From positions 135,412-199,411 of the forward strand of contig CAYOSQ010000001.1 of the NCBI GenBank assembly GCA_964406665.1: a DNA stretch of 64,000 nt, given 5' to 3'. This document shows positions 3,099 through 33,531 of the stretch, piece by piece. Positions within the stretch are counted from its first letter, which is position 1. Each line of letters begins with the position of its first letter. A program made the translations under genes and the position numbers. The DNA is from an uncultured Planctomycetia bacterium. Its GTDB lineage: Bacteria; Omnitrophota; Gorgyraeia; VGKH01; JBHPFN01. The notes beneath the pieces are model-generated. The model did no database searches and was not told the DNA's origin. It worked only from the letters and a program-made list of their open reading frames with translations.

Positions 3099-4202
3099 AT
3101 GGATATCAATAAGAACCCAAAGAAATATCACAGGATAAAAAATTTACTTTCGTTCCTGGATATCATCTTACAGGGTTCAATTTTATTGATAATTACGTTA
3201 TCCGGATTCTCTCTTTTCTTGAAAAATCAGGTGTCTGGAGTGTTTGAGAACTTTTATTTAGTTGTTGCCGGATATATCTTTTTGCTTGCGACAATTTTTT
3301 ATTTTATTACATTGCCAATAAGCTTTTTTGAAAACTATTATTTAGAACATCAATATAATCTTTCAAATCAAAAAATAACAAGCTGGTTTAAAGATAGTCT
3401 AAAAGAAACTATCATTGGATTATTGATTTTGCTAATCTGTGGAGAGTTTGTCTATTTTATCTTACGTAATTTTTCGGAGATTTGGTGGATTTTTGCCGGA
3501 TTTTTCTGGATATTTATAAGTGTAGTGTTGGCAAAAATTACCCCAACGTTGTTGATACCGTTATTCTATAAGTATATTCCTTTGGAAAAAGAAGAGCTGA
3601 AGGATAAAATTTTAAAATTGTTCAATACGCGTAAAGTTAAGATTAAAGATGTATATGTAATTAAATTTTCGGAGAAAACTAAAAAAGCTAATGCCATGGT
3701 TTGCGGTTTTAGTAAAAACCGTAGGGTAATTTTAACCGACACGCTTATTAATAGTTTTTCCGACGAGGAGATTGAGCAAGTCGTTGCCCATGAACTAGGC
3801 CATTATTGTGGTAGAGACATAACGAAGTTACTTTTTTTAAATTCAGTATGTTGTTTCCTGGCATTTTTTGTTGCTGATAAGGTTATAAGCACAACAGCTT
3901 TAAGATTCGGTTTTAGCGGTTTAGATGATATTGCCTTTTTTCCGATTTTGCTGTTGAGTCTCGTTGGAGTTGCTTTTTTGCTTTTACCTTTTCGTAACTG
4001 CTTTTCCAGATTTTTAGAGAAACGAGCGGATTTGTTTAGTTTGCAACTTACCAAAAACTCCCCAGCATTTATATCAGCCATGAATAAATTAGGTAGTTTG
4101 AACCTTGCAGATTTTAAGCCTTCTATTTTAGTAGAAATTTTTCTCTACAATCATCCTCCGATTGGAAAGAGGATTAAATATGCAAAAGAATTTAAAATAT
4201 GA
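3099..4202 (+). CDS. M48-family (Ste24/HtpX-like) integral-membrane zinc metalloprotease
   Basis: Multi-TM N-terminus, HELGH zinc motif (VVAHELGHY), downstream glutamate (EKRAD) and the C-terminal NHPPIGKRI motif typical of M48. Confidence 0.7.
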   Translation: MDINKNPKKYHRIKNLLSFLDIILQGSILLIITLSGFSLFLKNQVSGVFENFYLVVAGYIFLLATIFYFITLPISFFENYYLEHQYNLSNQKITSWFKDSLKETIIGLLILLICGEFVYFILRNFSEIWWIFAGFFWIFISVVLAKITPTLLIPLFYKYIPLEKEELKDKILKLFNTRKVKIKDVYVIKFSEKTKKANAMVCGFSKNRRVILTDTLINSFSDEEIEQVVAHELGHYCGRDITKLLFLNSVCCFLAFFVADKVISTTALRFGFSGLDDIAFFPILLLSLVGVAFLLLPFRNCFSRFLEKRADLFSLQLTKNSPAFISAMNKLGSLNLADFKPSILVEIFLYNHPPIGKRIKYAKEFKI

Positions 4203-6151
4203 AAAAGAGAAAAAAACATATTAATTCGGATCGGCGCAAATATCTAAGACTTAAGAGTGTTTTTCCTGTTGAGTTTAGGATTATGTCAGATAAGGATGAA
4301 CCATGGCAACAGGGGTTTACTTCTGATATAAGCAAAGGAGGTATTTGTCTAAAAGTTAACAACGTAGATGATAAATGGTTTTCTCAGCTTCAAGAAAAAG
4401 GTGTGGATATATCTTTACAGATAAATATTCCTATGTCTGCCGCAGCTACGCGTGCGGTTGCAAAAATTGTCTGGGTTAAGAAGGTCAAAGTAGGTGCTCT
4501 AAATCAATGTTTAATGGGCTTAGAATTTTCAAAGATAGATTCAGGAAATATTAACGGTATTGTACGCTATGGTCGCTGGATGGTGTATTCTGGTAAGGTT
4601 GCCGTAATAGCAATCTTGTTTTTGGCAACTTTAGCAGGTAGCATATTTCTAAATAATCAAAAGATGAGAAAAGAAAATGAAACATTAGTCGAAAAGTTAG
4701 TTGATAGCGCTAAAGAGGAATCAAAAATAAACAAACAGTTAGAAATTTTAACTGAAAGCAATAACGAAGCAGCAGTTCAGATTGAATCTTATTTAAGTAA
4801 AGTATCTAATTTGGAGATTAGAATTAATGAAGTAAAAACGCAAAAAGATAAAGACATGCTTAAGCAATTAGATAGTTTGAAAAAAGAGCTAGCTATCGCT
4901 GAAGAAAAAAAAGAAACCTTAGAGTTAAAATTAGCAGGTTCTAAACAAAGAAAAGAGTTAATTGATAAGGTTTTATTTTCTATAAAGGAGGAAAAGAAAG
5001 ATTTGCGGAAGGCTATGATTGATAAAATGTATAATTGGCTTGTTGTTCATCAAAACCCTCGTACTGGATTAATAATCAGCTATGAGGGGGATAGGCGTCT
5101 TCGGGACTGGGCATTCATTTATGATCAAGCCTTGGCCTCTCAGGCGTATATTCTATTCGGTGATTATGATCATGCTGAGAAGGCGTTCAATTTTTTCTTA
5201 AGACAATCGCATAAACAAGGACAGTTTTCTGGTTTTGCCAATGCCTACTATGCTTCTACAAGTAACGTAGCAGAACATGCTGTACATTGTGGTCCAAATA
5301 TTTGGCTGGGGATATCTTTGCTTCATTATCAGAGAGCAACCTTAGATGCCACGTATCTTCCTTTGGCTAAGAAAATTGCTGACTGGCTTATCAGGATACA
5401 AGAGCAAGATCCTTCTGGAGGTTTACGCGGAGGTCCTTCAGTTAACTGGTTTGCAACTGAGCATAACCTGGATGGCTATGCATTCTTTAACATGTTATTT
5501 GAGATAACAAATGAGGCCAAATACAAAATAGCTAGAGATAAAATCCTAAGCTGGTTGATTACCCATGCTTATGACCGCAAAGAAATTCCGATTAACCGTG
5601 GTAAAGGAGATTCTACCGTAGCAACTGATACATATGCCTGGTCAATTGCAGCTATAGGACCTAAGAAGCTCAAGAGAATAAAGATGGACCCAGATGAAAT
5701 TATGGCGTTTGCAGAAGATAATTGTGGTGTTTTTGTAGAATATGAAAGACCTAACGGAGAAAAGGTTGATGTTGAGGGTTTTGATTTTGCCAAATATCGT
5801 AATATGCCCCGGGGTGGAGTCATCTCTTCCGAGTGGACCGCACAGATGGTATTATCTTTTAAGATAATGCAAGAATATCATTTGAACCAGAATAATTTTG
5901 ATAAAAGTGTTTATTATTCTAAAAAGTATACCCATTTCTTAAATGAACTTGAAAAGCTACTTATTTCATCGTCTTCTCCGACGGGTCAAGGGGAAGGATG
6001 TCTTCCTTACGCAACCGAGGATAATGTAGATACCGGTCATGGGTGGAGAACGCCTCAGGGTCGTACCACTGGTTCGGTCGCCGGAACAACGTATACAATA
6101 TTTGCTCAGAAAGGTTTTAATCCGTTAAAGTTTTCTAAAGATGAAAAGTAG
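4199..6151 (+). CDS. PilZ-domain c-di-GMP receptor fused to TM helix, long coiled coil and a C-terminal alpha/alpha-toroid (glycoside-hydrolase-like) domain
   Basis: N-terminus carries both PilZ signatures, RRKYLR (RxxxR) and DISKGG (DxSxGG). A hydrophobic helix (VAVIAILFLATLAGSIFL) follows, then about 150 aa of heptad-rich coiled coil and a roughly 370 aa Trp/Tyr-rich domain. Start overlaps the upstream gene's stop (ATGA). Confidence 0.75.
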   Translation: MKKRKKHINSDRRKYLRLKSVFPVEFRIMSDKDEPWQQGFTSDISKGGICLKVNNVDDKWFSQLQEKGVDISLQINIPMSAAATRAVAKIVWVKKVKVGALNQCLMGLEFSKIDSGNINGIVRYGRWMVYSGKVAVIAILFLATLAGSIFLNNQKMRKENETLVEKLVDSAKEESKINKQLEILTESNNEAAVQIESYLSKVSNLEIRINEVKTQKDKDMLKQLDSLKKELAIAEEKKETLELKLAGSKQRKELIDKVLFSIKEEKKDLRKAMIDKMYNWLVVHQNPRTGLIISYEGDRRLRDWAFIYDQALASQAYILFGDYDHAEKAFNFFLRQSHKQGQFSGFANAYYASTSNVAEHAVHCGPNIWLGISLLHYQRATLDATYLPLAKKIADWLIRIQEQDPSGGLRGGPSVNWFATEHNLDGYAFFNMLFEITNEAKYKIARDKILSWLITHAYDRKEIPINRGKGDSTVATDTYAWSIAAIGPKKLKRIKMDPDEIMAFAEDNCGVFVEYERPNGEKVDVEGFDFAKYRNMPRGGVISSEWTAQMVLSFKIMQEYHLNQNNFDKSVYYSKKYTHFLNELEKLLISSSSPTGQGEGCLPYATEDNVDTGHGWRTPQGRTTGSVAGTTYTIFAQKGFNPLKFSKDEK

Positions 6152-8972
6152 AATCAGAATATATTATCATTTTCAATTGTTTGGTTTGATCATAGCCGCT
6201 GTTATGTTTTTTTATTCATATGCATATGCTTATAAACAGCCGCATTATATTATTGACGCCACCTTAGATGTTTCCAAGCATGTTCTTCAGGCCAAGGAAA
6301 GGGTAACATTTACCAATAATATTGACAGAGAAATCAAAGAAGTATTCTTTCATATTTATCCCAATCGGAAATTTACTGATAAAGAAAAAGATTTTATGTT
6401 GCGTTACGGTGGATACTTCAAGGTGAATCTATATCCTGAAGGTTTTCAGAGTTCTAGCATGACAATTGATTCTATTAAAGAAAATGGAAAACACCTAGAT
6501 TTTGAGATTATTTCTGAAGATGAAACTATTTTGCGAATTGGCTTACCCCAGTCATTATCTAAGGGGAAGTCGGTTGACTTAGACATAGAGTTTTCAGTGG
6601 TTTTGCCTCATGCATATGGTAGGTTGGGTTGGAATGATAATGTAATTAGTCTTATGCGTTGGTATCCCATTCTTTCGGTTTTAGACGAGGAAGGATGGCA
6701 CAATTATCCTTTTTATCCTTATCATCAGCCATTTTTCTCTGATTCCGCCCGGTATCAAGTAAACTTAACAATTGCCAAAAATTATGTGGTTGCACATACA
6801 GGAAGCGTGCAGGAAGAATTTATAAATTCCGACGAAACAAAAACTATTAAAATAGATTCACAGCTGCCTGTGCGGGATTTTGCTCTTGCCGCCAGTCCTG
6901 ATTTCCGCATATTTTCACTAGAGCATAATGATGTAGAAATAAGATCATACTATTTGCCTGGAGATGATTTCCTTGGAAAAAAAGCAGCTGAGTTTTCTTT
7001 GGCTTTGATGGAATATTATGCTGACCGCTTTATTGATTATCCTTACAAGACATTTTCTATAGCTTCTACCTATCTAGGTTATGGAGGAAATCAATCTTCA
7101 GGAATTATTTTTATCGACACTCGAGTTAACAAACTTCCTAAATTCCTTCTACGATATTTTGATTTTCTTATTTCTCACGAGACAGGGCATCAATGGTTTT
7201 ATAATTTGGTAGGCTCTGATGAATATAAAGAGATGTGGATAGATGAGGGCATCAACTCTTATTTTATTTCAGAGTATTTAGAAGATAAATACGGTCCTGA
7301 TGCCCAAGTTATGATTTTACCTAAATGGCTTCAGCCCTTCGTTCCAAATTTTTCTTTTAAAAGTGGTAGAATCGTACGTTATTTTTACCTGGCTAAAAGA
7401 GGATTAGACAGGCCTATCTTAGGAAAGCTTTCTAGTTTTAAAGAACCAAGCAGCATTTTTGCTTTGGCTTACGGAAAAGGTTCTATTGTAATTGAGATGT
7501 TGCATTCTTTAGTTGGTGAAGAAGCTTTTGCAAGAATAATGAAACAATATTTTAATAAATATACTTTCAAAAATATTTCTGTTTCTGATTTTATCAGGAT
7601 TTGTGAAAAAGAAAGCGGTAAAGACTTAGATTGGTTTTTCGATCAGTGGCTTAATACAGATAAGACGTGCGACTATGCTGTTAATAAAGTAAATAAAAAC
7701 AAAGTTGTTTTAGAAAATCGCGGTGAGATAATTATGCCGGTTAAAACGGAAATTTATTTTTCTGATGGTTCAGTTTTGAAAGATTCTTGGAACGGAGAAG
7801 GAGAAAGTAAGGAAATAGAAATTTTAGAAACTAGTCGTATAGAAAAGATTGTGGTCGATCCTGATAAGGCGATGTTGGATTTAGATAGGACTAATAATTT
7901 TTGGCCACGCTTGTTTGAAACCAAAGCAGTTCCGCTTTACTACGCTGTATACGAAATCCCTGTAGTTTTACCTGAAGATTCATATAGCTTTATTTATGGT
8001 CCGGAATTTATGAAAAATAGTGTAGGTATGCGCGTGAGCTTGCAAAAGCCTTACGATAATAATTTAAGTCTATTTACCGGATATGATCTTAATTCCAGCG
8101 TAATAAAATCAGTACTGGGATTTGAACAGAGAAACTTATTTAATAAACAACTTGCCGGTGGAATTGAATTTTTCAGAGACGAAGATTTAAGTGGTAAAAA
8201 AGAGGATTTAGATGGCGGCAAAATTTATTTGCGACGAGAACTTTGGCCAGCAGCCTATGGATTAACAGAGGTCAACGATCACATTACTTTTTATCTTTTG
8301 CGTAACCGAAAATTTGAAGGAAGTTTTATTGCATCAGGCAGAGAGGATCAGGAAGATATTTCGTATTCTAGAAAAGATGAAGCCATTACAGGAATTGATT
8401 TTAGCTTAGATAGATCCGGACCGTATTTTGATCCCGATTCCGGATACAGAGCTAAAGTTACCTTAGAACATGCAGGACATTTTTTAGGTGGAAAAGAATC
8501 GTTTTCCAGAGGGACAGTTGATTTCACAGGATATCATGGATTTTTGCCAGAGCAAAAACTTGCACTGCATCTTAAGAGCGGATGGGGTTTTCCTTCGGAC
8601 AAAAATCTGTTTGAATTAGGCGGCGACGAAAGTTTAAGAGGGTATGGCCGCAAGGCAATGCGCGGATCCCGTTTTTTCTTAGGAAGCCTGGAATACCGCT
8701 TTCCTTTAATTAGACAAACAAATTTGCGTTTATTAGATAATATAATTTCCATTTCTGCTTTTCAAGGCGTTGCTTTTTTTGACGCTGGTAGAATATGGCA
8801 TGGAGATGTAGAAAAAAGTAATATTAAAAAAGATGCTGGTTTAGGTTTAAGGGTTCATGTTGATATTGGTTCTTATTTAGAGAAGCTTATTTTGCGAATT
8901 GATGTTGCCCAGGCGATTAATGAACCCAAAGAAGACCCGCATGTGTGGTTTGGAATAAGTCACGCATTTTAA
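6141..8972 (+). CDS. Fusion protein: M1-family (gluzincin) metallopeptidase domain plus C-terminal Omp85/D15-type outer-membrane beta-barrel
   Basis: Signal-peptide-like N-terminus. HETGH-X18-E (HETGHQWFYNLVGSDEYKEMWIDEG) is the exact M1 HEXXH-X18-E signature. The C-terminal 300 aa has alternating beta-strand character (LRGYGRKAMRGSRFFLGSLEYRFPL) and ends in ...GISHAF with a terminal Phe, typical of Omp85/BamA-family barrels. Confidence 0.7.
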   Translation: MKSRIRIYYHFQLFGLIIAAVMFFYSYAYAYKQPHYIIDATLDVSKHVLQAKERVTFTNNIDREIKEVFFHIYPNRKFTDKEKDFMLRYGGYFKVNLYPEGFQSSSMTIDSIKENGKHLDFEIISEDETILRIGLPQSLSKGKSVDLDIEFSVVLPHAYGRLGWNDNVISLMRWYPILSVLDEEGWHNYPFYPYHQPFFSDSARYQVNLTIAKNYVVAHTGSVQEEFINSDETKTIKIDSQLPVRDFALAASPDFRIFSLEHNDVEIRSYYLPGDDFLGKKAAEFSLALMEYYADRFIDYPYKTFSIASTYLGYGGNQSSGIIFIDTRVNKLPKFLLRYFDFLISHETGHQWFYNLVGSDEYKEMWIDEGINSYFISEYLEDKYGPDAQVMILPKWLQPFVPNFSFKSGRIVRYFYLAKRGLDRPILGKLSSFKEPSSIFALAYGKGSIVIEMLHSLVGEEAFARIMKQYFNKYTFKNISVSDFIRICEKESGKDLDWFFDQWLNTDKTCDYAVNKVNKNKVVLENRGEIIMPVKTEIYFSDGSVLKDSWNGEGESKEIEILETSRIEKIVVDPDKAMLDLDRTNNFWPRLFETKAVPLYYAVYEIPVVLPEDSYSFIYGPEFMKNSVGMRVSLQKPYDNNLSLFTGYDLNSSVIKSVLGFEQRNLFNKQLAGGIEFFRDEDLSGKKEDLDGGKIYLRRELWPAAYGLTEVNDHITFYLLRNRKFEGSFIASGREDQEDISYSRKDEAITGIDFSLDRSGPYFDPDSGYRAKVTLEHAGHFLGGKESFSRGTVDFTGYHGFLPEQKLALHLKSGWGFPSDKNLFELGGDESLRGYGRKAMRGSRFFLGSLEYRFPLIRQTNLRLLDNIISISAFQGVAFFDAGRIWHGDVEKSNIKKDAGLGLRVHVDIGSYLEKLILRIDVAQAINEPKEDPHVWFGISHAF

Positions 8973-10752: not shown

Positions 10753-13149
10753 TTATTCTCCAGCTGTATAAAGCCCAGCGGGATGATGTGAAAAATTATA
10801 GTCGTTATCTACCAAACGAATTGTTATGCTAGCAAAATACCCAGGAAGTTCTCCGGGAGGTAATACATCTGGAGTGTAACGTGTTTCGTATTGGAATATA
10901 TTGTTTGATGAACTCGGACCATGAGAAGTCATGTCCCACGGCCAGCCCGCAAGTCCTTCGCTTCTGCAGGGTGATCCGGGAAAAGCAGAAGTAAATTCTG
11001 GGTTAGTACATTTTCTGGATTTGTTCCAATCAAAGATAGGCCAGCTAGAACCCTCGTCAAATTCTTTCCATTCAAAGTTGTTGTTTTCCAGATTAATAAA
11101 AGAACCAACTACTTTCCTGGTATATCCTGATTCTCCCCATCTTTCTAGCACTGCAGGTGGGTATGCTCTATAGCCGACAATAGAAACATAGTATTCAACA
11201 ATACCATTGTCATCTTCTCCGGCAACAGGAGCCATCTCGTCTTCATATAGCATTTCCCAATGGCCTTCATGCCAATCTTCATCTTCTACATAAGGATAAT
11301 CTGGATTATGAATTGTGTAAGGCAGCCCTCCTTCTGTAATTCCTGCGATACGTTCCATTTCATCAAGAAAACTTTCAGATACCGTAAAAGCCCTTTTTGC
11401 AGCGATTATTGCTGAAGGCTGCCAGTCATGACCTGCTTCTCCAACGTTATAATCACCCATGAGATAGATATTTTCTCTGGAAACTGTTGTTAGCGGCGCT
11501 AGTAGTGAGCGAGCCTTTGCTAGTGCTAGGTCGTAATCAGAATAAACAACACCATTTTGTGGCCAGATTCCATCAGTCTTCATTCTGTAAACATCTAGAG
11601 AGATAATATTTTCTTTTAATTGCCAGCTGTTGGTGTCGTGAAAAGAACGGTTGCGAGCTATCGTTTTGCCGCTGACGGGGCTTACATAGTCTCCATCAGG
11701 CTCAGGGCATATTAATAGTGGTTCAGGTTGTCCTTCTATATGAACTTGTATAGCAATTTCTTTGCTACATTCTTCAAAATTATTTATATACATACCCTCT
11801 GACTGAGCTTGGTTGAAATAAGTTGCTGAGTTAATTCGCGGAGGAGTAATGTGTTCAGCACCGGTATTGTGTTCAAGTATAACACCATCTAAAGAAGTGG
11901 GCATCCAGTCTTGCCAAGCACCAAGCTGCTCATAAGTGTTCGTAAAGTTAGCAGGTATATCTACAGGACTAACTGGATTAGGGTAGTAGTAACGAGTACC
12001 GCCCCACCAAAGGCCACCGCTTGTTCTCCAGAAGAGATCCCAGTCATAACTAGAACTAAGCCTTGTCGGGATTCTTTCTTCTGGCTGCCCGTTGGCGTTA
12101 ATCCTTACAGAGCGGTGGTACCGTTCTCCCGGAGCAGCATCTCCATAAATATAGTAATCACTATACATGTAAAGATCTTCGTTAATTAAATTTGGGTCAT
12201 GTCCTGTGGCAAGCTCACAGTTTCCTTCAGGAAGAATACAGTTAGCAAAGTCGCCTTCACAAGTTGCATATAGCTCGTTGCCAGGGCCAGCAGGGAGCTC
12301 ACCATTAAATGCGGGATTATCCATAAATAGTCCACTTCTTTCGCCGTAGACTTTTCCATCATGATGATGATAGTAGTCGTATTCCTCACCATTTAAATTC
12401 TGTGGGTCCCACCAGGGGTCACGCATCCAGTAGAGTATGTCATTCCAAGAAGGAGCATCGCCAATGACGTTACCATATTGATCATATGCTACATCTTCAG
12501 GAGGCATATAGGCATATGTGTTGTAGCTGATATATTGAGCAGCTTCTAATGTATTGATATTTTGAATAACTACACTATCAGCAAATTTTAGATTTCCGTT
12601 TGTGTGAATACTACCGCCTTCAGCTAAAAAAGTTGTCCAACCCATATACATACTGTAAGGACTAAACCAAAAGTATTCATACAGAGTGCTGATTGATACT
12701 TTAGCAGCCATGAGGTATGAGTTATCGGTTGTATCGCTTACGCCTCTGGCTAGAATAGCGAACTGTCCGTCTCCTTCATCTAGGTAGACTTTGGTAAAGA
12801 ATTTATCGTTTAAGGCTTTGTATTCTCCTGTTCCACCATCATGTTCTGCAATTGTGTCTAAAAAAACATGTAGAGGAGTACCGTAATCATATAAGAAAGT
12901 AGGGTCGGTATCCTCGGGGTCGAAGTAATGCGTTTTCCAGCTTGTGCCGTGATTTATTAGTTCGTAGTAGGCACACTCGAATCCTTTTTCAGCATTATAC
13001 TTTGCGCTAAGATCGCCGTAATTTTCACGAGCAATCAAATCTTCATTAATACTTTTTGCAAAGATAGCAGCAGAGAGAATTGTAAGCACTATAATAGTTG
13101 CAAAAGAACCAACGAGTAAGAAACCACATTTATTTCTTAGTCTTATCAT
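10753..13149 (-). CDS. Large secreted PilX-N-like (non-canonical pseudopilin-type N-terminus) putative pilus tip or adhesin protein, copy 2
   Basis: N-terminal MIRLRNKCGFLLVGSFATIIVLTILSAAIF resembles the PilX_N or GspK-type hydrophobic anchor. The roughly 770-aa body is rich in Trp/Tyr/Asp. It is paralogous (about 35% identity, shared blocks such as HTNGNLKF and GDYNVGE) to the ORF at 14815..17115. Confidence 0.55.
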   Translation of the reverse strand: MIRLRNKCGFLLVGSFATIIVLTILSAAIFAKSINEDLIARENYGDLSAKYNAEKGFECAYYELINHGTSWKTHYFDPEDTDPTFLYDYGTPLHVFLDTIAEHDGGTGEYKALNDKFFTKVYLDEGDGQFAILARGVSDTTDNSYLMAAKVSISTLYEYFWFSPYSMYMGWTTFLAEGGSIHTNGNLKFADSVVIQNINTLEAAQYISYNTYAYMPPEDVAYDQYGNVIGDAPSWNDILYWMRDPWWDPQNLNGEEYDYYHHHDGKVYGERSGLFMDNPAFNGELPAGPGNELYATCEGDFANCILPEGNCELATGHDPNLINEDLYMYSDYYIYGDAAPGERYHRSVRINANGQPEERIPTRLSSSYDWDLFWRTSGGLWWGGTRYYYPNPVSPVDIPANFTNTYEQLGAWQDWMPTSLDGVILEHNTGAEHITPPRINSATYFNQAQSEGMYINNFEECSKEIAIQVHIEGQPEPLLICPEPDGDYVSPVSGKTIARNRSFHDTNSWQLKENIISLDVYRMKTDGIWPQNGVVYSDYDLALAKARSLLAPLTTVSRENIYLMGDYNVGEAGHDWQPSAIIAAKRAFTVSESFLDEMERIAGITEGGLPYTIHNPDYPYVEDEDWHEGHWEMLYEDEMAPVAGEDDNGIVEYYVSIVGYRAYPPAVLERWGESGYTRKVVGSFINLENNNFEWKEFDEGSSWPIFDWNKSRKCTNPEFTSAFPGSPCRSEGLAGWPWDMTSHGPSSSNNIFQYETRYTPDVLPPGELPGYFASITIRLVDNDYNFSHHPAGLYTAGE

Positions 13150-13185
13150 GATAATTACCTCTTTAGCTGTCTAGGAAAACACCAG

Positions 13186-14775
13186 CTAGTTTCTTAAAGT
13201 AACAGAGCTTGTAATAGAAAATTCAAAAGGACCTGACATCATAGAATCTTTTGATGCTTCAATGATTATATTGACAGAGTCCGGATTGCTATCTTTAGGA
13301 TTTCCGCTTTCATCAAAACCTTGGAAATCAACCCGTATTATATTATCTGCGACAACCGAGAATGTATAGTTGTCTATGCTTCCCATATCTTCGGCAAAAA
13401 CTAAATTCGAGAAGAATTTTTTTATAGCACAAAATGGAGGACAGCCTCCTGGGTCTCGACCCTGTGCTGGCAGATCTTTATTATGCACCAGATATCCATT
13501 AGCAAAGTAGTTGTGATATGGGTTTACTTCAATGTTGTAAACTATTATCTTTTCATCAACAGCTTCTATGCTGGTAATTGTTTCTTCTTTTCCTTCCTGG
13601 GTAAGAAGAATATCACCTTGTTTTAGCTTACCTGCTCTAACCCATGCACCATTAGCGAAGAAAGGATGTTCTGTTGTTACTTTGATGCCATCATTGATTA
13701 TCAGATACCCTTGGACCTCATGCATGAATACTTCTTTTACTGTGTCTCCTAGCTTAGTTCGAGAATTTTCACTATAAGAGGTTACTTTATCTCCTGTAAC
13801 TATATTTTCAATAAACTTGTTAGTGCCATCAGCCATAAGAATAGAAGTGCCGGGTAAGAGACAGCCTTTATTATGAGCTAATATGTTATCAGCATAATAT
13901 GTATGATAAGGGTTAACCTCAAGGTTGTATACCAACACAGGTTCTTCGATCCTTTCTATGCTGGTGATTGTTTCTTTAGAGCCGTTTACCTTGGTTAACT
14001 CATCACCTATATTAAGCAAGCCGATATCTACCCATCTACCTTTATGAAATACTGGGTGGTTAGGTGTTGCCTTGATGCGACCATTGATTAAAAGATAGTT
14101 ATCTTCTTCATGAATAAATGTTTCCACTACCTTATCAGACTTATTTTTACCAGATTCCTGATCATAGGCTAATACAGTGTCTCCTACTTTAATTGCTTCA
14201 ATATCTTTAGTTGAACCATCAGCTAAAAGAATAGGGGTACCTGCGAGAAAACAAGGATCGCATTCACCGCAGTCTAATTCACAAGTATTACAGTCTTCTC
14301 CAATCTCTGGTTCGCAGCCTTTGATGCCACAATGGTTAGTTGCTATTAAGCGCATAAGTCTTCCAGCGTTCGCGGAAGAAAAATTACTATGGGGTACTAA
14401 ATATACAACTTCTTCATTAAGAATACCATCAGCGCCCCATTTAATTTCTCCATAGGGATCTTCTTTATAATATGTGCCCGTGATAGGATCGTCAGTAATC
14501 TGCGGTGTCTGTAATTTTATAAGATGTCCGATACAGGTATTAACGTGTTCTCCGGTACACTCTTCAATAAAAACATGACCGGAATCTGATTGTTCTAGCT
14601 CTTTGACCATGCGTTCCATTGAGTAGCGGGCCTTCTGTTGTAGGTCAACCATTGAAGAACTTCTAATCCAGGTATTTCTTCCTATTATAATAGTACCGAT
14701 AACAATACCAAGTATAAATATTGCTATAACAACAGTTGCCATAGTTTCAGAAAGGGTAAATGCTTTTCTGTTCAT
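13186..14775 (-). CDS. Prepilin-type N-terminal domain protein with Cys-rich repeats and two tandem Hint (bacterial intein-like, BIL) domains, copy 2
   Basis: N-terminus MNRKAFTLSETMATVVIAIFILGIV is a type IV pilin-like leader plus hydrophobic helix, with Ala at -1 and a conserved Glu+5. A Cys-rich EGF-like segment (CGIKGCEPEIGEDCNTCELDCGECDPC) follows. Two Hint modules each have an N-terminal Cys (CFLAGTPIL, CLLPGTSIL), a TxxH block (TPNHPVF, TEHPFF) and a terminal HN (LAHN, LVHN), then Lys rather than a nucleophile. Confidence 0.7.
   Translation of the reverse strand: MNRKAFTLSETMATVVIAIFILGIVIGTIIIGRNTWIRSSSMVDLQQKARYSMERMVKELEQSDSGHVFIEECTGEHVNTCIGHLIKLQTPQITDDPITGTYYKEDPYGEIKWGADGILNEEVVYLVPHSNFSSANAGRLMRLIATNHCGIKGCEPEIGEDCNTCELDCGECDPCFLAGTPILLADGSTKDIEAIKVGDTVLAYDQESGKNKSDKVVETFIHEEDNYLLINGRIKATPNHPVFHKGRWVDIGLLNIGDELTKVNGSKETITSIERIEEPVLVYNLEVNPYHTYYADNILAHNKGCLLPGTSILMADGTNKFIENIVTGDKVTSYSENSRTKLGDTVKEVFMHEVQGYLIINDGIKVTTEHPFFANGAWVRAGKLKQGDILLTQEGKEETITSIEAVDEKIIVYNIEVNPYHNYFANGYLVHNKDLPAQGRDPGGCPPFCAIKKFFSNLVFAEDMGSIDNYTFSVVADNIIRVDFQGFDESGNPKDSNPDSVNIIIEASKDSMMSGPFEFSITSSVTLRN
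13468..13868. repeat. About 400 bp direct repeat, roughly 95% identical to 17436..17836 (Hint-domain cassette shared by the two pilin-BIL genes)
   Basis: Direct sequence comparison shows long identical runs, e.g. gcagatctttattatgcaccagatatccattagcaaagtag. Antisense ORFs at 13568..13777 and 17536..17730 translate almost identically. Confidence 0.8.
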
Positions 14776-14814
14776 TCCTTGTCCCCCCTTGTTAGTTTAT
14801 ATGATATCACAGTA

Positions 14815-17115
14815 TTAATAATATTTAACATAATAATAATTGAATTCAGAGAGAGGTATTTCCATGTAGATTTGTTCGGTGAAACCAACATAATCTTCTG
14901 GAGGATACTCGCCTGTTTCATTGTATGATTTATCATATTTGAATTCGTTATTTGCAGCATAAGGACCAATGGCACCCATTGAACTTGGCCAGCCAGGGTT
15001 TGTGCGTTCTGGTCTGGCGACAGTGTTATCATATTGGCCTGGATTTCCAAAATCTTCTTCACTGATTCTTATCTTGGAACCAAGGACAGTTCTTTTACGC
15101 TGCGTCCAATTGCTAGGAGTGTTATTTAAATCTCCCACATCTTGATAAAAGCTCCAGTTTTCTAAAACCTTGGGTTCATAAGCACGGTGACCGATAGCAG
15201 AAATATTATAGGTATAGTCTTTATCTACATTATTGGCAACTGTTCCGTCATATATCGGCAGAGTTAACGGAGGAGGTTTTTCCAGCTCTTGGCATACCTC
15301 TTCTTTTGGATCGCAAGGCGGAGGATAGGCCTCTGGGTTATCTTTTAAATTAGCCATCCAGTTGTATCTATCACCAGGGTCTGCTGTTAAATCCCAGTTA
15401 GGTTCATAGGGATATTCAATATGAAATCTGGTTATTGGTAGAGCACTAGGATAGTTAAACACATCAGATAAAGTATATAAATCCATTGCACAGATTGCTG
15501 CAGAAGGTTGTTTATCAGTTGCGAGATCACCAATGTTATAATCTCCTTTTAAATGCAAGTTTTTCTCAGTTATCCAGGTAACCCCACCTTCTGGTAAAAC
15601 TTCGGCATTATCAACAACTATATTAGCTTCGGAATAGATTAATCCGTTTCCAGGAGAATTTCCGGATGCAAGCAGTTCGGAAAAATTAAATTCTGTTACG
15701 ATGTTTTCTTGCATGCTGTGAGTGTTTATAAAAGTTTTAATTTCTGCCACAAGGTGTCCGCCTATCCATACTTCTCCTGAGGCATCAGATGGATATGAAA
15801 CGCGCGCAATCTGTACGCTGATTTCAGTTCCGTCTTCGTTTGACCCGATATATATACCTGCATCTTGAGCTGCATCTGCATAGTTTGAAGCGGCTACTGA
15901 CAAGGGTTCAATGTATTCTGCTCCAGAAGAGTAATCTTTTATAACTCCGGCTAGATTTGGTTCTGAAGCTGTATAATCAGATAGAGCTTGGGCTTGTGAA
16001 GCAAAAGAAGTGTTTAGCCATTTAACTGTTATTTCTGATTCTGGGAATCCCCAGGCTTCAGTAATGCTCCAGTATTTGTTTATGGTGTATGGTGCCTCTA
16101 ACCTGTTGGGAAGTCTGGTTTCGTTAATCCAGGCAATCCTGTCATCGTCAGCATAGTTTTCTGGGGCTTCATCAGGAAGGGGAGGATCTGGGTCAATATC
16201 AGGATCCCAGATTGCCTGAGCGGCATTGCGAATATTATACTTATCTCCATACACATGTCCATAAGATCTATTTTCGTATGAATACTCTGAAAACATTCCT
16301 CCTGAATATGTTTCTAAAGATTCTCCGGAATCTGGCTCGTAATTTGCTGAAGTCCAAGGTGCATGATTATATTTATAGTAGCTTCTCCAGGTTTCATGTG
16401 GGCAGTCTGTACATCCGGGAGTTTCATCCATGAAGTCATCGATGAATTCATAGGGAAGCCATGACTTGGCATAATATTGAATATAATCTTTTGCAGAAAA
16501 TTCACTAACATTAAAAATTTCAACGGAGTTCTGAAATATGAAGCTTCCATTAGTATGCATCCTTCCACCGTCAGCAAGCCATGTTCTACTACTTAAATAA
16601 TATGTTGAAGGAGAAAACAAAAAATAATCATAAAGAGATTGTGAGATAGTTTTAGACATAAATATTCTTTCAGTGCCTTGATTTTCACTTAGTCCTTTGG
16701 AATATATAAAATAGTCATCACTTGAAGGGCTTTTAAAAACTTTTACAGCAAAGTCTAGCCCTAACCCAGATCCTTTAGAAATATAGCATCCGTAGGTAGG
16801 ACTTTCTGGATCTTCATCTATCGCGGTTAATCCAGATAGCGTTACCGTTGGAACAGTGCCTGTGGGAACAAGCAGGCCATCTGCCTTTACCGTATGAGTA
16901 ACCCAATTGAGACTATGTGAAATTTCATATCTTGCCAAATTCAATCCGGCATCTGCAGCACACTTAGATTCTATATTACTTTGTTGCCTGCGTATGTTTA
17001 AGTTGTCGTTTGCTATTCTAAAAAAGAATGCTGTGGCCAATACAGAAAGTGCTGTAACAACAATGTAAGTGCCAATGAGTACAAAACCCTTTTTGTTAAG
17101 TATTTTTACGTTCAT
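14815..17115 (-). CDS. Large secreted PilX-N-like putative pilus tip or adhesin protein, copy 1
   Basis: N-terminal MNVKILNKKGFVLIGTYIVVTALSVLATAFFF (PilX_N-like). 766 aa and paralogous to 10753..13149. Follows the pilin-BIL gene by 27 nt on the same strand. Confidence 0.55.
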   Translation of the reverse strand: MNVKILNKKGFVLIGTYIVVTALSVLATAFFFRIANDNLNIRRQQSNIESKCAADAGLNLARYEISHSLNWVTHTVKADGLLVPTGTVPTVTLSGLTAIDEDPESPTYGCYISKGSGLGLDFAVKVFKSPSSDDYFIYSKGLSENQGTERIFMSKTISQSLYDYFLFSPSTYYLSSRTWLADGGRMHTNGSFIFQNSVEIFNVSEFSAKDYIQYYAKSWLPYEFIDDFMDETPGCTDCPHETWRSYYKYNHAPWTSANYEPDSGESLETYSGGMFSEYSYENRSYGHVYGDKYNIRNAAQAIWDPDIDPDPPLPDEAPENYADDDRIAWINETRLPNRLEAPYTINKYWSITEAWGFPESEITVKWLNTSFASQAQALSDYTASEPNLAGVIKDYSSGAEYIEPLSVAASNYADAAQDAGIYIGSNEDGTEISVQIARVSYPSDASGEVWIGGHLVAEIKTFINTHSMQENIVTEFNFSELLASGNSPGNGLIYSEANIVVDNAEVLPEGGVTWITEKNLHLKGDYNIGDLATDKQPSAAICAMDLYTLSDVFNYPSALPITRFHIEYPYEPNWDLTADPGDRYNWMANLKDNPEAYPPPCDPKEEVCQELEKPPPLTLPIYDGTVANNVDKDYTYNISAIGHRAYEPKVLENWSFYQDVGDLNNTPSNWTQRKRTVLGSKIRISEEDFGNPGQYDNTVARPERTNPGWPSSMGAIGPYAANNEFKYDKSYNETGEYPPEDYVGFTEQIYMEIPLSEFNYYYVKYY

Positions 17116-17141
17116 TTTACCCCTCGCTTTTAGATGGCAAT

Positions 17142-18419
17142 TTATTCATTTACATTTACTGCTGAATGTAATGTTACCTCTAGCTCTCTACCGAGTAGAA
17201 ATATATTCTTTTTAGCCAAAATAGTTATTTTTATTACTTCCGGATTTGCTGCATCCGGTATTGCTGTAAATGTTATCCTATCTATATTTTGAGTGAGAAC
17301 ACGTTCTCCATAAAGCATGTCCGCATATGCGCATGGTGTTAAAAATATTGATCTAAAGAATTTATTAAGCGATGTCCAATCACCACAGTCTGGTGGGCAA
17401 TCGCCACCCCGGAGTTCCATCTGATAGTGCATCGCGGGCAGATCTTTATTATGCACCAGATATCCATTAGCAAAGTAGTTATGATATGGGTTTACTTCAA
17501 TGTTGTAAACTATTATCTTCTCATCAACAGCTTCTATGCTGGTAATTGTTTCTTCTTTTTCTTCCTGGGTAAGAAGAATATCACCTTGTTTTAGCTTACC
17601 TGCTTTAACCCATGCACCATTAGCGAAGAAAGGATGTTCTGCTGTTGTTTTGATATTATCATTGATTATCAGATATCCTTGGACCTCATGCATGAATACT
17701 TCCTTTACTATATCTTCCAGCTTAACTTGAGAGTCTTCATCATAAGAGGTTACTTTATCTCCTGTAACTATATCTTCAATAAATTTGTTAGTGCCATCAG
17801 CCATAAGAATAGAGGTGCCTGGCAAGAGACAGCCGGGATGGCAGGGACCGCAATCTGTTGAACAGGTACTGCAGGTTTCTCCTAGCTCTGGCTCACATAT
17901 TTCATTGCCGCAATGAGCAGGATTACATTCTCCGCAGTCTGGAATGCATTCATCGCAAATTTCGTAAGGGGTTTCGCATACCTCGTTTCCACAAACTGGA
18001 TCGATTGGTTGTTTTCTTACTAAACTGCCTTGATTTTCTCCTTGAGCCGGAACATAGTAGTAACCAAATTCATCAGGCCATCCATCAATACCCCATTTGA
18101 TTTGACCGGATTCATCATAATATGTTCCTGCTACTGGATCGTTGGTTATAATCGGGGCCTGAAATTCAATTACATCTCCTACACATTCAGTTTCTATGCA
18201 TCCAGTAACTGTGATGTGATCTGCATCTAGAGATTTTAATTCGTTTACAATTCTATCCATTGCAAACCGTGTAGATTGTGTCAGATCAGCATATGCAGAA
18301 TTAGTTAAGAATGTATCGCGACCAACTACAAGGGTTGAGGTAATCATTAAACCAATACCAACACAAATCGCCGTTACAACTAATCCTTCAAAAAGTGTGA
18401 AAGCTTTTCTATTCATCAC
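17142..18419 (-). CDS. Prepilin-type N-terminal domain protein with Cys-rich repeats and one Hint (BIL) domain, copy 1
   Basis: N-terminus MMNRKAFTLFEGLVVTAICVGIGLM (prepilin-like). Long Cys-rich stretch (CGNEVCETPYEICDECIPDCGECNPAHCGNEICEPELGETCSTCSTDCGPCHPGC). Hint domain CLLPGTSILMADG...TAEHPFF...LVHNKD. AGGAGG RBS upstream. First gene downstream of the riboswitch. Confidence 0.7.
   Translation of the reverse strand: MMNRKAFTLFEGLVVTAICVGIGLMITSTLVVGRDTFLTNSAYADLTQSTRFAMDRIVNELKSLDADHITVTGCIETECVGDVIEFQAPIITNDPVAGTYYDESGQIKWGIDGWPDEFGYYYVPAQGENQGSLVRKQPIDPVCGNEVCETPYEICDECIPDCGECNPAHCGNEICEPELGETCSTCSTDCGPCHPGCLLPGTSILMADGTNKFIEDIVTGDKVTSYDEDSQVKLEDIVKEVFMHEVQGYLIINDNIKTTAEHPFFANGAWVKAGKLKQGDILLTQEEKEETITSIEAVDEKIIVYNIEVNPYHNYFANGYLVHNKDLPAMHYQMELRGGDCPPDCGDWTSLNKFFRSIFLTPCAYADMLYGERVLTQNIDRITFTAIPDAANPEVIKITILAKKNIFLLGRELEVTLHSAVNVNE
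17436..17836. repeat. About 400 bp direct repeat, roughly 95% identical to 13468..13868
   Basis: See the paired repeat entry. Covers the Hint domain of copy 1. Confidence 0.8.
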
Positions 18420-30099: not shown

Positions 30100-33000
30100 A
30101 TGTCTGAAAAAGACAAAAAAATTAGTCCTTCAAAAAACCGAACTGTGAATCGGTCTGCCCAGAACGATTCAAGCTTACCTAAGAAACTCTCCAATTGTAA
30201 AAAGATAGAACAGGCATACCTAGAAACAGAATTACATTGCTCCAATGCACTTAATTCTTTATTTGATTCAATTCTTATTGTTGATAGAGAGTTAAAAATC
30301 ACTTTAATTAATGACGCCTTTAAAGAATGGAATAAAAAACTTGGTTTGTCAGATAACATGGTGGGTAAATACCTTTTTGAAGTATTCCCGTTTTTGCCGA
30401 ATAAGGTTAAACAGGAATATGATCAAGTCATTCAAAAAAGGGAATCTCTAATAACCGAGGAACACGTAAATGTTTTAGGAAGAAACTTGATAACAGAGGC
30501 TAGAAAGATTCCAGTTTTAAGAAACGGTGAGACAGTTCAAATAATTACCATGATTAGGGATATTACTGAGCGTAAAAAAATAGAAGAGAGAATAACTAAG
30601 ATAAACAAATGCTTTCTTGATTTTAGCTCGAACGCTGATGAGAATATAAATAAATTAGTTGCTCTTTGCGGAAAAATAATGGGAGGAAAATGTTCTGTTT
30701 ATAATAGGCTAGAAGGAGGATTGCTTTGCTCAGTGGGGAAATGGAACACCCCTAAGGATTATAATTCTATTAGTAATCCTGAGGGACATATTTGTTATGA
30801 TGTTATCAAGCGCGGCAGTGGAAAGTTCTGGATAGTACGCAATTTACCTCAGTCACGTTATGGGCAATCAGACCCAAATGTAAAAAGTTTCGGACTGCAG
30901 ACTTATATAGGTATTTCTGTTTCTTTCAACGGAAAGTGCGTAAGCGCACTATGTGTTGTATATCAAGAGGATGTTGTTATAGATAATGACGATAAGAAAT
31001 TTATGCAGCTGATTGCTTCTGCCATTGCTTCAGAAGAGAAGCGTAAAGAATCAGAAAAGGCTTTGTTGACCAGCAAGGAAAAATACAAGACCTTAACTCA
31101 TAATGTTAACATAGGCATATACAGGAATACAGCTGGTTCTCATGGTAAGTTTATTGAGGCGAATCCTGCGGTCATAAAAATGTTTGGATATAAAAACAGG
31201 CGTGATTTTTTGATTCGAAATGTCTGCGATTTGTACCAAAATAAGGCAGATCGAGAAAAGTTTAGCAGGAAGTTATTGGAAAAGGGATTTGTCAAGAATG
31301 AAGAATTACGCCTTAAGAAAAAAGACGGAAAGGCTTTTCTTGCATCTGTATCTGCCGTTGCTATAAAAGATGATAATGGCGAGATCAAATATTATGATGG
31401 AATAGTTGAAGATATAACCGAGAGAAAACAATCTGAAGTTAAATTGCGTAAATCAGAAGAAAAATACAGATTTCTTTTTGAAAAAAGTGCGATTCTTGCC
31501 ATAGTTGTCGGTGAGGATAAAAAGATCAAAGATGTAAATAAGTGGACTTGGGAAACTTTAGGATATGCAAGAAATGAAATAATTGGAAAAACAGCTTTAG
31601 ATTTCGTTGTTCCTGAAGAAAGAGAAAGAGCGCGAGAGGAATTAAAAAAATCATTTAACGATGAAATATCCTCCGGTGTTGGAATTAACGTACTTGCCAA
31701 AGATGGCAGTACGCATACGATTCTTTTTTCTCCCGGACAGGTTTTACTGCAGGAAAAAGGTAAGATTTCCAGCATACTTCTAACAGGTTTAGACATTACT
31801 GATCGTAAAATATCTGAAAAAAATCAGCTTGATATGACATCACATTTGCGCGCCGTGGTAGCTGCAACCGATGAACTTATTAATTGTTCGAATCTTGAAG
31901 TTGTTTACCGCTGGGCAGTAGAATTTGCCAGAAATAAGCTAGGACTAGAGAGATGCGCGATATTTTTGGAAGAAGGAGGTTATGTTCAAGGTATTTATGG
32001 AACTGATAAAAATGGTAATACAACAGACGAACATACGAATCGTTTTTTAAAGAATGAATCCTGGAAACAGCGTTTTAGGATGCTTCATCCTCAAGACCCA
32101 AGTTGGGTGGTAGTTAAGGAGCCGCAGCTAGAATGGGATGGAGATAAAACTGTTCAAATAGGAGAAGGTTGGATTGTAATAACGCCTATTCAATCTACCC
32201 AACGTCCTATAGGCGTGTTGGTTAATGATACAGCCATAAGCGGTTGTGTATTAGATCCTATGAAGCAAGATACCTTGGCTGTGTTTTGTTCTCTCTTGGG
32301 AAACATTATTGAGCGTAAACGTGCAGAAAATAAATTAGAGATAGTTAACAAAAAACTACTTCAGTCAAACAGAAGGTTGAAACAGCTTGCTTTAAGGGAT
32401 TCTCATACTGGATTATATAATCATAGATATTTGGAAGAAGCAATCAATTCTGAATTCGACCGCGCAAAACGCTATGCCTATTCTCTTTCTGTAATTATGC
32501 TCGACATTGATTATTTTAAATCCATAAATGATGTTTATGGCCATCAGTTTGGTGACCTTATATTAAAACAGTTTTCCCGTCAACTTAAGCGTCTGGTACG
32601 TAAATATGATACTGTTATTCGTTTTGGTGGAGAAGAGTTTATTATTCTTTCCCCGGGTATTGATAGATTTACAGCCATGATTTTAGCCCGTCGACTCTTA
32701 AATGTTGTTAATTTATGCAATTTCGGCAATCAGGAAAATAGTATAAAGTTAAAATTAAGTTTGTCTATTTCTTCCTATCCTGAAGATAATGCTTCTAAAG
32801 GAATGGATTTGATTAATCTGGTTGATCAGATTTTAAACAGGGCAAAAGAAGATGGAGGAGATCGGGTTTATTCTTCCCAGGAGATGGGTAAAGAAAAAGA
32901 TCCGGTATTAAACAAGGTGGAAAGAAGTACCGATATTAATTTCCTTCAGGAAAAAATAGATAAGCTTACCAGAAGGGCGAACCAGAGTTTGATAGAAGCA

Positions 33001-33531
33001 ATCTTTGCTTTTGCAAAGACGATAAAATTAAAAGACGATTATACTGGAGAACATGTTGAGGAGACTGTGTTTTTTGCAACTGAAATAGCCAGAAGGTTAA
33101 AGTTGACTAAATTTCAAATTGAGCAGATTCGTCAGGCTTCGAAGTTGCATGATCTAGGTAAAATCGGCGTAAGCGAGAGAATTTTACGTAAAAAATCTAA
33201 ATTAACCAAGAAAGAATTTGATGAGATAAAAAAACATACTTTAATTGGAGCTGATATATTAAGGCCGATTCATTTTCTGCATGATATTATTCCGCTAATA
33301 CTTTATCATCACGAACGCTGGGATGGTACAGGGTATCCTTATGGGTTAAAGAAAGAAGAAATACCTGTTGGGGCCCGTATAGTAGCCGTTGCCGATACTT
33401 TTCAAGCACTCACCTCTGATCGCCCATATCGCAAGGCATTTTCTAAGGCTAAGGCAAAAACAATTGTTAGAGAAAATGCTGGTACGCAGTTTGATCCTAA
33501 AATAGTAAATGCATTTTTAGCTTTAACATAG
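30100..33531 (+). CDS. Multidomain c-di-GMP turnover protein: PAS/PAC sensor domains, GGDEF diguanylate cyclase and HD-GYP phosphodiesterase
   Basis: Several PAS-like blocks. GGDEF domain with DIDYFKSINDVYGHQFGD and an intact RFGGEEFIIL (GGEEF) active site. C-terminal HD-GYP with HDLGKIGV and HHERWDGTGYPYGL. Confidence 0.85.
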   Translation: MSEKDKKISPSKNRTVNRSAQNDSSLPKKLSNCKKIEQAYLETELHCSNALNSLFDSILIVDRELKITLINDAFKEWNKKLGLSDNMVGKYLFEVFPFLPNKVKQEYDQVIQKRESLITEEHVNVLGRNLITEARKIPVLRNGETVQIITMIRDITERKKIEERITKINKCFLDFSSNADENINKLVALCGKIMGGKCSVYNRLEGGLLCSVGKWNTPKDYNSISNPEGHICYDVIKRGSGKFWIVRNLPQSRYGQSDPNVKSFGLQTYIGISVSFNGKCVSALCVVYQEDVVIDNDDKKFMQLIASAIASEEKRKESEKALLTSKEKYKTLTHNVNIGIYRNTAGSHGKFIEANPAVIKMFGYKNRRDFLIRNVCDLYQNKADREKFSRKLLEKGFVKNEELRLKKKDGKAFLASVSAVAIKDDNGEIKYYDGIVEDITERKQSEVKLRKSEEKYRFLFEKSAILAIVVGEDKKIKDVNKWTWETLGYARNEIIGKTALDFVVPEERERAREELKKSFNDEISSGVGINVLAKDGSTHTILFSPGQVLLQEKGKISSILLTGLDITDRKISEKNQLDMTSHLRAVVAATDELINCSNLEVVYRWAVEFARNKLGLERCAIFLEEGGYVQGIYGTDKNGNTTDEHTNRFLKNESWKQRFRMLHPQDPSWVVVKEPQLEWDGDKTVQIGEGWIVITPIQSTQRPIGVLVNDTAISGCVLDPMKQDTLAVFCSLLGNIIERKRAENKLEIVNKKLLQSNRRLKQLALRDSHTGLYNHRYLEEAINSEFDRAKRYAYSLSVIMLDIDYFKSINDVYGHQFGDLILKQFSRQLKRLVRKYDTVIRFGGEEFIILSPGIDRFTAMILARRLLNVVNLCNFGNQENSIKLKLSLSISSYPEDNASKGMDLINLVDQILNRAKEDGGDRVYSSQEMGKEKDPVLNKVERSTDINFLQEKIDKLTRRANQSLIEAIFAFAKTIKLKDDYTGEHVEETVFFATEIARRLKLTKFQIEQIRQASKLHDLGKIGVSERILRKKSKLTKKEFDEIKKHTLIGADILRPIHFLHDIIPLILYHHERWDGTGYPYGLKKEEIPVGARIVAVADTFQALTSDRPYRKAFSKAKAKTIVRENAGTQFDPKIVNAFLALT

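Follow-up and report, generated by a model that had tools for sequence, protein, structure and literature searches.

The window analysed here is a 64,000-nucleotide stretch of contig CAYOSQ010000001.1, from an uncultured bacterium, and the gene under study lies on its minus strand (13186..14775). It encodes a protein of 529 amino acids (aa) in which two tandem Hint domains of the bacterial intein-like (BIL) kind interrupt what is, by fold prediction, a GspJ/PilW-type minor pilin. The gene is a single intact open reading frame (ORF) with exactly the boundaries given in the initial annotation of this DNA. Four public contigs (NCBI and JGI; the longest of 283,827 bp) encode the identical protein, so the gene is no assembly accident; an assembly artefact as the origin of the tandem was rejected on these four records and on the two Hints being only 51% identical to each other.

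The domain order can be followed along the minus strand. A putative class III-type signal, MNRKA/FTLSE, runs into the long N-terminal pilin α-helix (aa 1–62, 14590..14775; helix 8–62 in the AlphaFold2 [AF2] model), and Glu10, which is Glu5 of the mature form, is invariant in the family. The N-terminal half of the pilin β-domain follows (aa 63–147, 14335..14589), placed by alignment, by AF2 strands at 67–145 and by the model of the relative P0047; it holds a conserved Cys73–Cys81 pair and ends in the strand ‘GRLMRL’. Next is a 27-residue 6-Cys module, HCGIKGCEPEIGEDCNTCELDCGECDP (aa 148–174, 14254..14334), whose last Cys stands at position −3 of the first Hint. Hint1 (aa 175–302, 13870..14253) opens with Cys175 (CFLAGTPILLADG), contains the block B sequence TPNHPVF and closes with ILAHN at Asn302. 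Only Lys303–Gly304 (13864..13869), the +1 Lys of Hint1 and the −1 Gly of Hint2, separates it from Hint2 (aa 305–432, 13480..13863), which opens with Cys305 (CLLPGTSILMADG), contains TTEHPFF and closes with YLVHN at Asn432. The post-Hint linker (aa 433–466, 13378..13479; predicted local distance difference test [pLDDT] score low at 437–466) begins with the +1 Lys of Hint2, Lys433, and carries a CPPxC pair and a hydrophobic motif, AIKKFFSNLVFAED. The C-terminal β-strands of the pilin fold (aa 467–529, 13189..13377; pLDDT about 81–93) end in SSVTLRN and align with the C-termini of P0047 and of a second Hint-less relative, P0048. The initial annotation had read the same Cys1, TxxH and His-Asn landmarks in each module, with Lys after His-Asn and the two modules directly adjacent on a pilin-like protein, and in all of this it agrees with the present analysis. 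It had also noted the lack of an endonuclease insert; each module is 128 aa, mini-intein size, and therefore leaves no room for a homing endonuclease.

The best Pfam match of the protein is PT-HINT (PF07591), at 141.8 bits and E 2.2e-41 in two stretches (gathering score 27.7). Lower scores were obtained for Intein_splicing (64.4), Vint (52.2), Hom_end_hint (49.9), Hedgehog Hint (PF01079; 33.5, covering only the first ~50 residues) and Hint_2 (29.1 against a cut-off of 28.4, covering only the first 33 residues), and the NCBIfam models TIGR01445 (intein_Nterm) and TIGR01443 (intein_Cterm) exceed their cut-offs. The closest solved structure by sequence is 2LWY, a bacterial intein-like domain of Clostridium thermocellum (8e-16). 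AF2 models both Hints (aa 175–432) mostly at pLDDT above 90, and Foldseek ranks Tetrahymena BIL2 (6y75/6tmm) and 2LWY first, then mini-inteins, then Hedgehog, with probability 1.0; structure prediction thus gives both modules the Hint fold that the initial annotation expected. Its proposal that they are BIL domains and not canonical inteins is supported by the ranking of PT-HINT and 2LWY above the intein and Hedgehog profiles. Assignment to the type A BIL/PT-HINT class is supported, with the label ‘type A’ resting on our reading of the literature, which equates 2LWY and PF07591 with type A, since the profiles used are not specific to that type. A type B BIL identity was rejected because His-Asn is present, whereas type B domains lack an intein-like block G, and a Hedgehog/Hog identity was rejected on the same His-Asn and on the weak, partial match to PF01079.

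Two corrections concern the Cys-rich segment. An EGF-like array was said to precede each Hint; there is one 6-Cys module, before Hint1 only, and what comes before Hint2 is Hint1. Neither EGF nor any other Pfam profile matches the module, or the long arrays of its relatives, even at E <= 1. The EGF-like identity was dropped in favour of an uncharacterised 6-Cys repeat. Its last Cys forms, with Cys1 of Hint1, a CxxC motif that spans the N-terminal junction (Cys172-Asp-Pro-Cys175, window 14245–14262), and a junction-spanning CxxC or CxxxC is also found in P0002, P0004, P0006, P0051, P0058 and a 425-aa paralogue in the window. Cys172-x-x-Cys175 could act as a redox trap at this junction: linking Cys1 by a disulfide to a Cys of the N-extein is an established way to stop splicing at its first step (PMC10663303). 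Because its number of cysteines is even, the 6-Cys module need not engage Cys1.

At the other end of the insert, a hydrophobic motif of roughly F-L-K-K-F-F-x-G-x-A-F-A-x-E closes the insert, whether Hint, Cys-rich or Pro-rich, in every insert-bearing family member (P0048–P0074), and insert-free members are without it. A similar hydrophobic linker motif, LRYVFEFLSSLL, comes after the Hint in Omnitrophota Rhs proteins.

The closest relatives are from Candidatus Omnitrophota, the phylum to which the source bacterium is also assigned, and the host protein is, on its predicted structure, a minor pilin with the GspJ/PilW fold. In the model, the pilin-like N-terminus continues into a long α1 helix that packs on a GspJ-type β-domain, and the Hint-less P0047, which NCBI names ‘PilW family protein’, is modelled at pLDDT 91.9. 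Alignment of the family places all inserts at one site, flanked by the strand that ends in GRLxR and the strand that begins with Y-x-I-x-V-I-A-D. The ~65 residues that come after the Hints, conserved and shared with P0047 and P0048, form the last β-strands of the pilin; the Hints thus sit inside a single surface loop. Since this C-terminal segment belongs to the pilin fold and is not free cargo, the products of cleavage would differ from those pictured in the initial annotation, in which cutting at either module releases different pilin-anchored fragments.

The gene is one half of a two-gene cassette, and a second cassette adjoins it. On the same strand, each small pilin gene precedes a large gene: the 529-aa gene is paired with an ORF of 798 aa (10753..13149, minus strand), an arrangement also seen in the syntenic loci L001–L005, and the 425-aa paralogue (17142..18419, minus strand), which stands 2.4 kb away and has the same overall plan, is paired in the same way with an ORF of 766 aa (14815..17115, minus strand). 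The paralogue carries two 6-Cys modules and one Hint (aa 197–324, nt 17448–17831). The large partners have a pilin-like hydrophobic N-terminus without Glu5, and neither a Pfam or NCBIfam domain nor a PDB sequence match was found in them. Six copies of the large protein, from the window and from L001 6622–19247 (766–840 aa), are 29–46% identical to one another, and the order of small gene then large gene resembles gspJ–gspK and pilW–pilX. The small and large proteins probably form an alternative pilus-tip pair.

The contig L001, from a single-cell genome, is syntenic with the window, with PAC2, YjeF_N, HhH-GPD and AIRS genes on one side, and holds five or more tandem cassettes, each with a small pilin-like gene and a gene for a ~800-aa protein. 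Its small genes include P0002 (662 aa, three tandem Hints), P0005 (397 aa, one Hint), P0047 (218 aa, no Hint and no insert) and P0048 (253 aa, no Hint, a Cys-rich motif only). The paralogues and orthologues of the 529-aa pilin therefore carry zero, one, two or three Hints at one loop.

An exhaustive HMMER search with P0047 as the query against 1.84 billion representatives returned only 57 relatives. Hints occupy the loop in 16 of them (13 of the 28 at E <= 1e-10 and three weaker), two of which are the window's own genes; in the other members the loop is empty, Pro-rich or filled with one to many 6-Cys repeats, and it is hypervariable across the family. The 16 Hint-bearing proteins contribute 19 modules with pairwise identities of 38–91%. 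Cys1 and the block B TxxH are present in all 19 and the terminal His-Asn in 18, P0072 being the member without it. The residue that follows His-Asn is Lys in 15 modules, Arg in two (P0054 and P0082), Gly in one and Ser in one, the third Hint of P0002 (HN/S). Across 36 wider relatives, C175, T237, H240, H431 and K433 are each at least 90% conserved and N432 is invariant, and the +1 Lys is kept even where the protein ends just after it, in HNK, HNKK or HNKQQQ. By way of comparison, +1 is D, S, A, T or C in five classical polymorphic-toxin PT-HINTs encoded on plasmids of Leptospira, Streptomyces, Oscillatoria and Paenibacillus. ‘HNK’ thus marks a Hint subtype and not PT-HINT domains as a whole.

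These counts bear on two other readings of the modules. Were they genuine class 1 mini-inteins that splice canonically, one would expect their size, their blocks A, B and G, the two TIGR matches above cut-off and an extein-like context with empty-site paralogues, all of which are found. The residue required at +1 is Lys in both modules, however, and Lys or Arg in 17 of the 19 family modules; the best profile and structure matches are BIL/PT-HINT; and the host is a hypervariable, non-conserved secreted protein and not a conserved site in an essential enzyme. We regard canonical splicing as scarcely credible here. The initial annotation had held that a +1 nucleophile together with extein-like flanks would indicate a real intein: such flanks exist, as P0047 and P0048 are hosts without a Hint that have the same flanks, at a site that is not of the conserved-enzyme type, but the nucleophile is absent from the window's modules and occurs only in the third Hint of P0002.

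Alternatively, the Hints might be retained without processing, as a bulky effector or spacer on the pilus tip, with their catalytic residues serving a structural role or persisting as relics of recent descent. Modular pilins onto which other domains have been grafted are numerous and varied, and the architecture IPR012902-PF07591 is listed among them once (PMC8179133); this loop also accepts non-catalytic Pro-rich or Cys-rich repeats, and P0072 has lost His-Asn. Such retention is nevertheless hard to square with Cys1 and TxxH in 19 of 19 modules and His-Asn in 18 of 19 at 38–72% inter-lineage identity, unless catalysis is under selection, for which the survival of the catalytic residues through this divergence argues. 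Ligand binding, moreover, is not a known function of Hint domains, and zero to three copies at one site fit a removable element better than a specific adhesin. On balance, we consider retained, inert modules unlikely.

A scan of GTDB species representatives with a single Hint peptide pattern found six loci, all in Omnitrophota, a restriction to be read as a lower bound given the one pattern used. Three are pilin loci (two on L001, and L015, which encodes P0064), and in the other three (L014, L018 and L019) the same HNK Hint subtype lies within long Rhs/YD-repeat proteins. Rather than occupying the usual pre-toxin junction, the Hint in these Rhs proteins has the YD repeats on one side and the RHS-associated core on the other. 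The Rhs loci are one of two observations that would suit a polymorphic toxin, in which the Hint frees a C-terminal toxin delivered by the pilus; the other is the product name that NCBI gives to orthologues, ‘polymorphic toxin-type HINT domain-containing protein’. In the 529-aa protein, the segment after the Hints is the conserved terminus of the pilin fold, which is kept in Hint-less paralogues and modelled within the GspJ-like domain; no toxin domain was found by Pfam or NCBIfam, and the downstream gene encodes a pilin-like protein of ~800 aa, not a small immunity protein. A toxin is thus a very improbable explanation for this gene.

Tandem Hints of the HNK subtype recur in the unrelated metagenomic proteins P0008, P0015, P0021 and P0025. 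In P0008, one Hint ends in IAHN and the next opens directly with Cys (HN/CFPAGT), so that the Cys1 of the second could act as +1 nucleophile for the first.

Hint2 shares 92.7% of its nucleotides across 384 nt, and 91% of its amino acids, with the Hint of the paralogue at 17142–18419. The shared tract (13465..13866, minus strand, matching 17433–17834) extends from Gly−1/Cys1 of Hint2 through residue +5 (KDLPA); outside it, codons differ at two to three positions and the flanks are no more alike than random sequence. The two small pilins of the window are 57% identical overall, with most identities inside the Hint and few residues shared elsewhere. Such identity in a tract that starts at Cys1 indicates a module-precise gene conversion. 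Hint1, in turn, shares 72% identity with the first Hint of P0002, from the non-orthologous cassette of L001, but only 50% with the Hint of P0005, from the orthologous one.

A third observation comes from the metagenomic contig L006, which is 98.4% identical to window 11330–14253; all similarity ends precisely at the codon for Cys1 of Hint1. Upstream of that codon, L006 1–634 encodes a different pilin-like N-terminal module of ~135 aa, joined to the same two Hints and tail (P0004). L006 is a metagenomic contig of 3.6 kb; that it is a chimera formed at an identical repeat is unlikely, since the first ~60 nt past the junction differ from the window at several positions, most of them synonymous. 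As far as sequence comparison can tell, the Hint2 tract, the affinity of Hint1 with P0002 and the L006 breakpoint point to recombination with breakpoints at the Hint borders. The Hint would then be a portable DNA module, copied between paralogous cassettes by gene conversion at its own borders, and copying of this kind is our explanation for zero to three Hints at one site. A similar recombination role has been proposed for type A BILs in the variation of Neisseria mafB (PMC4287609).

How might such modules act? Domains of the type A BIL class end in His-Asn without a nucleophile at +1, mostly cleave, ligate to some extent by aminolysis, and occur in hypervariable regions of secreted, non-conserved proteins (PMC4031507; PMC7765530; PMC7664689). 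In the window protein the canonical branched intermediate cannot form, as no Cys, Ser or Thr follows His-Asn. The earlier statement that the modules cannot splice by the standard route stands to this extent, and needs amending in that type A BILs can still ligate their flanks by aminolysis (PMC4031507). Its companion, that cleavage or thioester chemistry may nonetheless occur, agrees with the type A BIL literature (PMC4031507; PMC7664689).

We infer, with moderate confidence, that the Hints excise or cleave themselves after export, which is the most likely of the mechanisms considered; the same inference extends to its timing, to a location at the pilus tip and to any benefit for the cell. The pilin would be exported by the Sec pathway and fold in the periplasm, after which each Hint would act once on itself. 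An N–S acyl shift at Cys1 would form a thioester at the N-terminal junction of the Hint, and cyclisation of the terminal Asn would cut the C-terminal junction. Cleavage would leave a two-chain pilin whose halves are held together by their shared β-sheet; as a minor and less efficient outcome, the flanks might be ligated by aminolysis, in analogy to type A BILs. Either outcome would remove the Hints from the tip loop.

Several observations weigh against this reading, in part or as a whole. With regard to the pilin, residue −1 of the signal is Ala, not Gly; Pfam reports no N_methyl match for the 529-aa ORF at E <= 1, and those in the paralogue and relatives score 12–20.6 bits, below the gathering score of 21.2. 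Pfam also identified no genes for type IV filament machinery or prepilin peptidase in the 34 window ORFs analysed (of 52 of at least 120 aa, the longest all included). The AF2 model of the whole protein has a pTM of 0.44, at which the geometry between domains is unreliable, and for placing the protein at the tip and pairing it with the large partner, the arguments come solely from gene order and the GspJ-like fold. With regard to the chemistry, the catalytic Cys1 would have to stay reduced in an oxidising compartment beside a disulfide-rich module, and simple cleavage leaves the near-invariant +1 Lys or Arg unexplained.

That +1 residue is the starting point for a different outcome, in which the Cys1 thioester is resolved by the ε-amine of the +1 Lys, giving an isopeptide, or by an amine or hydroxyl of a target cell, a lipid or another pilus subunit, in the manner of BUBL or Hedgehog; the N-terminal pilin fragment would thereby become covalently joined to that nucleophile. 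The best structural match, BIL2, forms such a Lys-ε isopeptide with the C-terminus of its N-flank (PMC8616854), and the +1 Lys is at least 90% conserved in the HNK subtype, even at protein ends, with other residues at +1 in the five classical PT-HINTs. Two pilin-like proteins, P0022 and P0024, have the Hedgehog-like order of cargo then Hint. P0022 (L007 8001–9440) is a more distant relative that combines Cys-rich repeats with a Hint at the very C-terminus, ending in HNKQQQ, and is encoded within a complete type IV pilus operon with a PilO-like protein, two T2SSE ATPases, a T2SSF platform protein, three 150-aa pilins and a prepilin peptidase. The conserved hydrophobic motif after the Hints could likewise be counted for this outcome, but it occurs in Hint-less members too, and there is no sterol-recognition-like region. 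The Arg at +1 in P0054 and P0082 suggests a requirement for charge rather than for an amine nucleophile, which weakens the case. We therefore judge thioester transfer to be distinctly unlikely. It would be a long shot that the Hints in fact arm the pilus tip, such that a thioester at the end of the Cys-rich module is captured by the +1 Lys to give a branched pilin, or by a host, prey, lipid or subunit nucleophile to give a covalent anchor. In such a scheme, the Cys(−3)-x-x-Cys1 disulfide could hold the reaction until the tip meets reducing conditions.

Self-excision or cleavage thus remains the favoured reading, and should the Hints only cleave, the system would be a modest extension of known BIL biology. 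Thioester transfer at a pilus tip, if true, would be of high interest; capture by a nucleophile on another cell would anchor the pilus covalently, in a phylum whose members supposedly live attached to other cells. BIL and PT-HINT domains have been studied almost solely as linkers of toxins and adhesins in cultivated bacteria, and their biological purpose is debated. Against that background, the natural series of zero, one, two and three copies at one site is a clean system in which to ask if BILs serve as removable passengers, as maturation switches or as coupling devices. The same system bears on the role of the conserved +1 Lys and on the diversification of pilus tips in Omnitrophota, a phylum believed to rely on attachment for its way of life; type IV pili are reported to be common in it and have been tied to attachment (PMC10066038). 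Furthermore, compact 128-aa modules that are predicted to cleave themselves and that can stand in tandem and beside extracytoplasmic neighbours rich in disulfides could serve protein engineering.

Other genes of the window were noted in passing. An ORF at 4199–6151 (plus strand) encodes a 650-aa PilZ-domain protein and another at 30100–33531 (plus strand) a 1143-aa protein of the PAS/GAF-GGDEF-HD-GYP type, which together suggest cyclic di-GMP signalling near the pilin cassettes. At 6141–8972 (plus strand), a 943-aa protein joins Peptidase_M1 (aa 289–503) to a C-terminal Omp85 β-barrel (aa 628–941), an unusual fusion. For a 2900-aa ORF at 38647–47349 (plus strand), Pfam gave no match at E <= 0.001; ORFs of great length have been reported as typical of Omnitrophota. 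GC skew is positive across the rest of the window, where most ORFs are on the plus strand, and turns slightly negative only in bins 12001–18000. These bins fall within the four minus-strand genes of the pilin cassettes, and the skew follows the coding strand.

The kind of domain described here is known, and its pilin host and position have been catalogued once only. What is added is the presence of one to three type A BIL/PT-HINT domains in a single loop of a minor pilin of the GspJ/PilW type, the conservation of Lys at +1 and the signs of module-precise gene conversion. Type A BIL domains (Amitai et al. 2003; Dassa et al. 2004) are the nearest comparison. The window modules share with them (~130–140 aa, as in 2LWY) the Hint fold, Cys1, TxxH and His-Asn, the absence of a +1 Cys, Ser or Thr and of an endonuclease, and a variable, secreted, non-conserved bacterial host. 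They differ in lying inside a loop of a folded pilin domain, not between domains, and in their tandem arrangement (two, and up to three in P0002) and near-invariant +1 Lys or Arg, features known here from sequence. PT-HINT domains of toxins (Neisseria MafB class 1, Rhs and Streptomyces toxins) provide the best Pfam match, with plasmid examples 37–40% identical, and in mafB the Hint likewise marks a recombination boundary (PMC4287609); unlike those toxins, the window gene has no downstream toxin domain or immunity gene, and has Lys at +1.

The top Foldseek match, BIL2 of Tetrahymena BUBL (6TMM/6Y75), comes from a protein that also repeats BIL domains in one polypeptide and whose chemistry ends in a Lys-ε isopeptide (PMC8616854). 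BUBL, however, is eukaryotic and cytoplasmic and has ubiquitin-like flanks, whereas the window protein has no ubiquitin-like domain. Hedgehog and Hog proteins share the Hint fold and the class of Cys1 thioester chemistry, and their cargo-then-Hint order is that of P0022 and P0024, with a C-terminal Hint; the window Hints depart from them in having a terminal His-Asn and no sterol-recognition region, and in scoring 33.5 bits for Hedgehog Hint versus 141.8 for PT-HINT.

On the side of the host, GspJ/EpsJ/XcpW and PilW-type minor (pseudo)pilins differ from the window protein, which is encoded in repeated stand-alone cassettes away from machinery genes, has a ~800-aa partner without a recognisable domain and carries a hypervariable loop. 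Modular minor pilins, and GspK with a domain inserted in its β-sheet, are documented, and the pilin catalogue of Raynaud et al. lists the architecture ‘N-methyl motif - PF07591’ once, uncommented (PMC8179133). Compared with such modular pilins (Streptococcus sanguinis PilB and PilC, and GspK with its α-domain), the modules of the window protein are predicted to be autocatalytic and presumably removable, and they are inserted in a GspJ/PilW-type fold in zero to three copies among paralogues.

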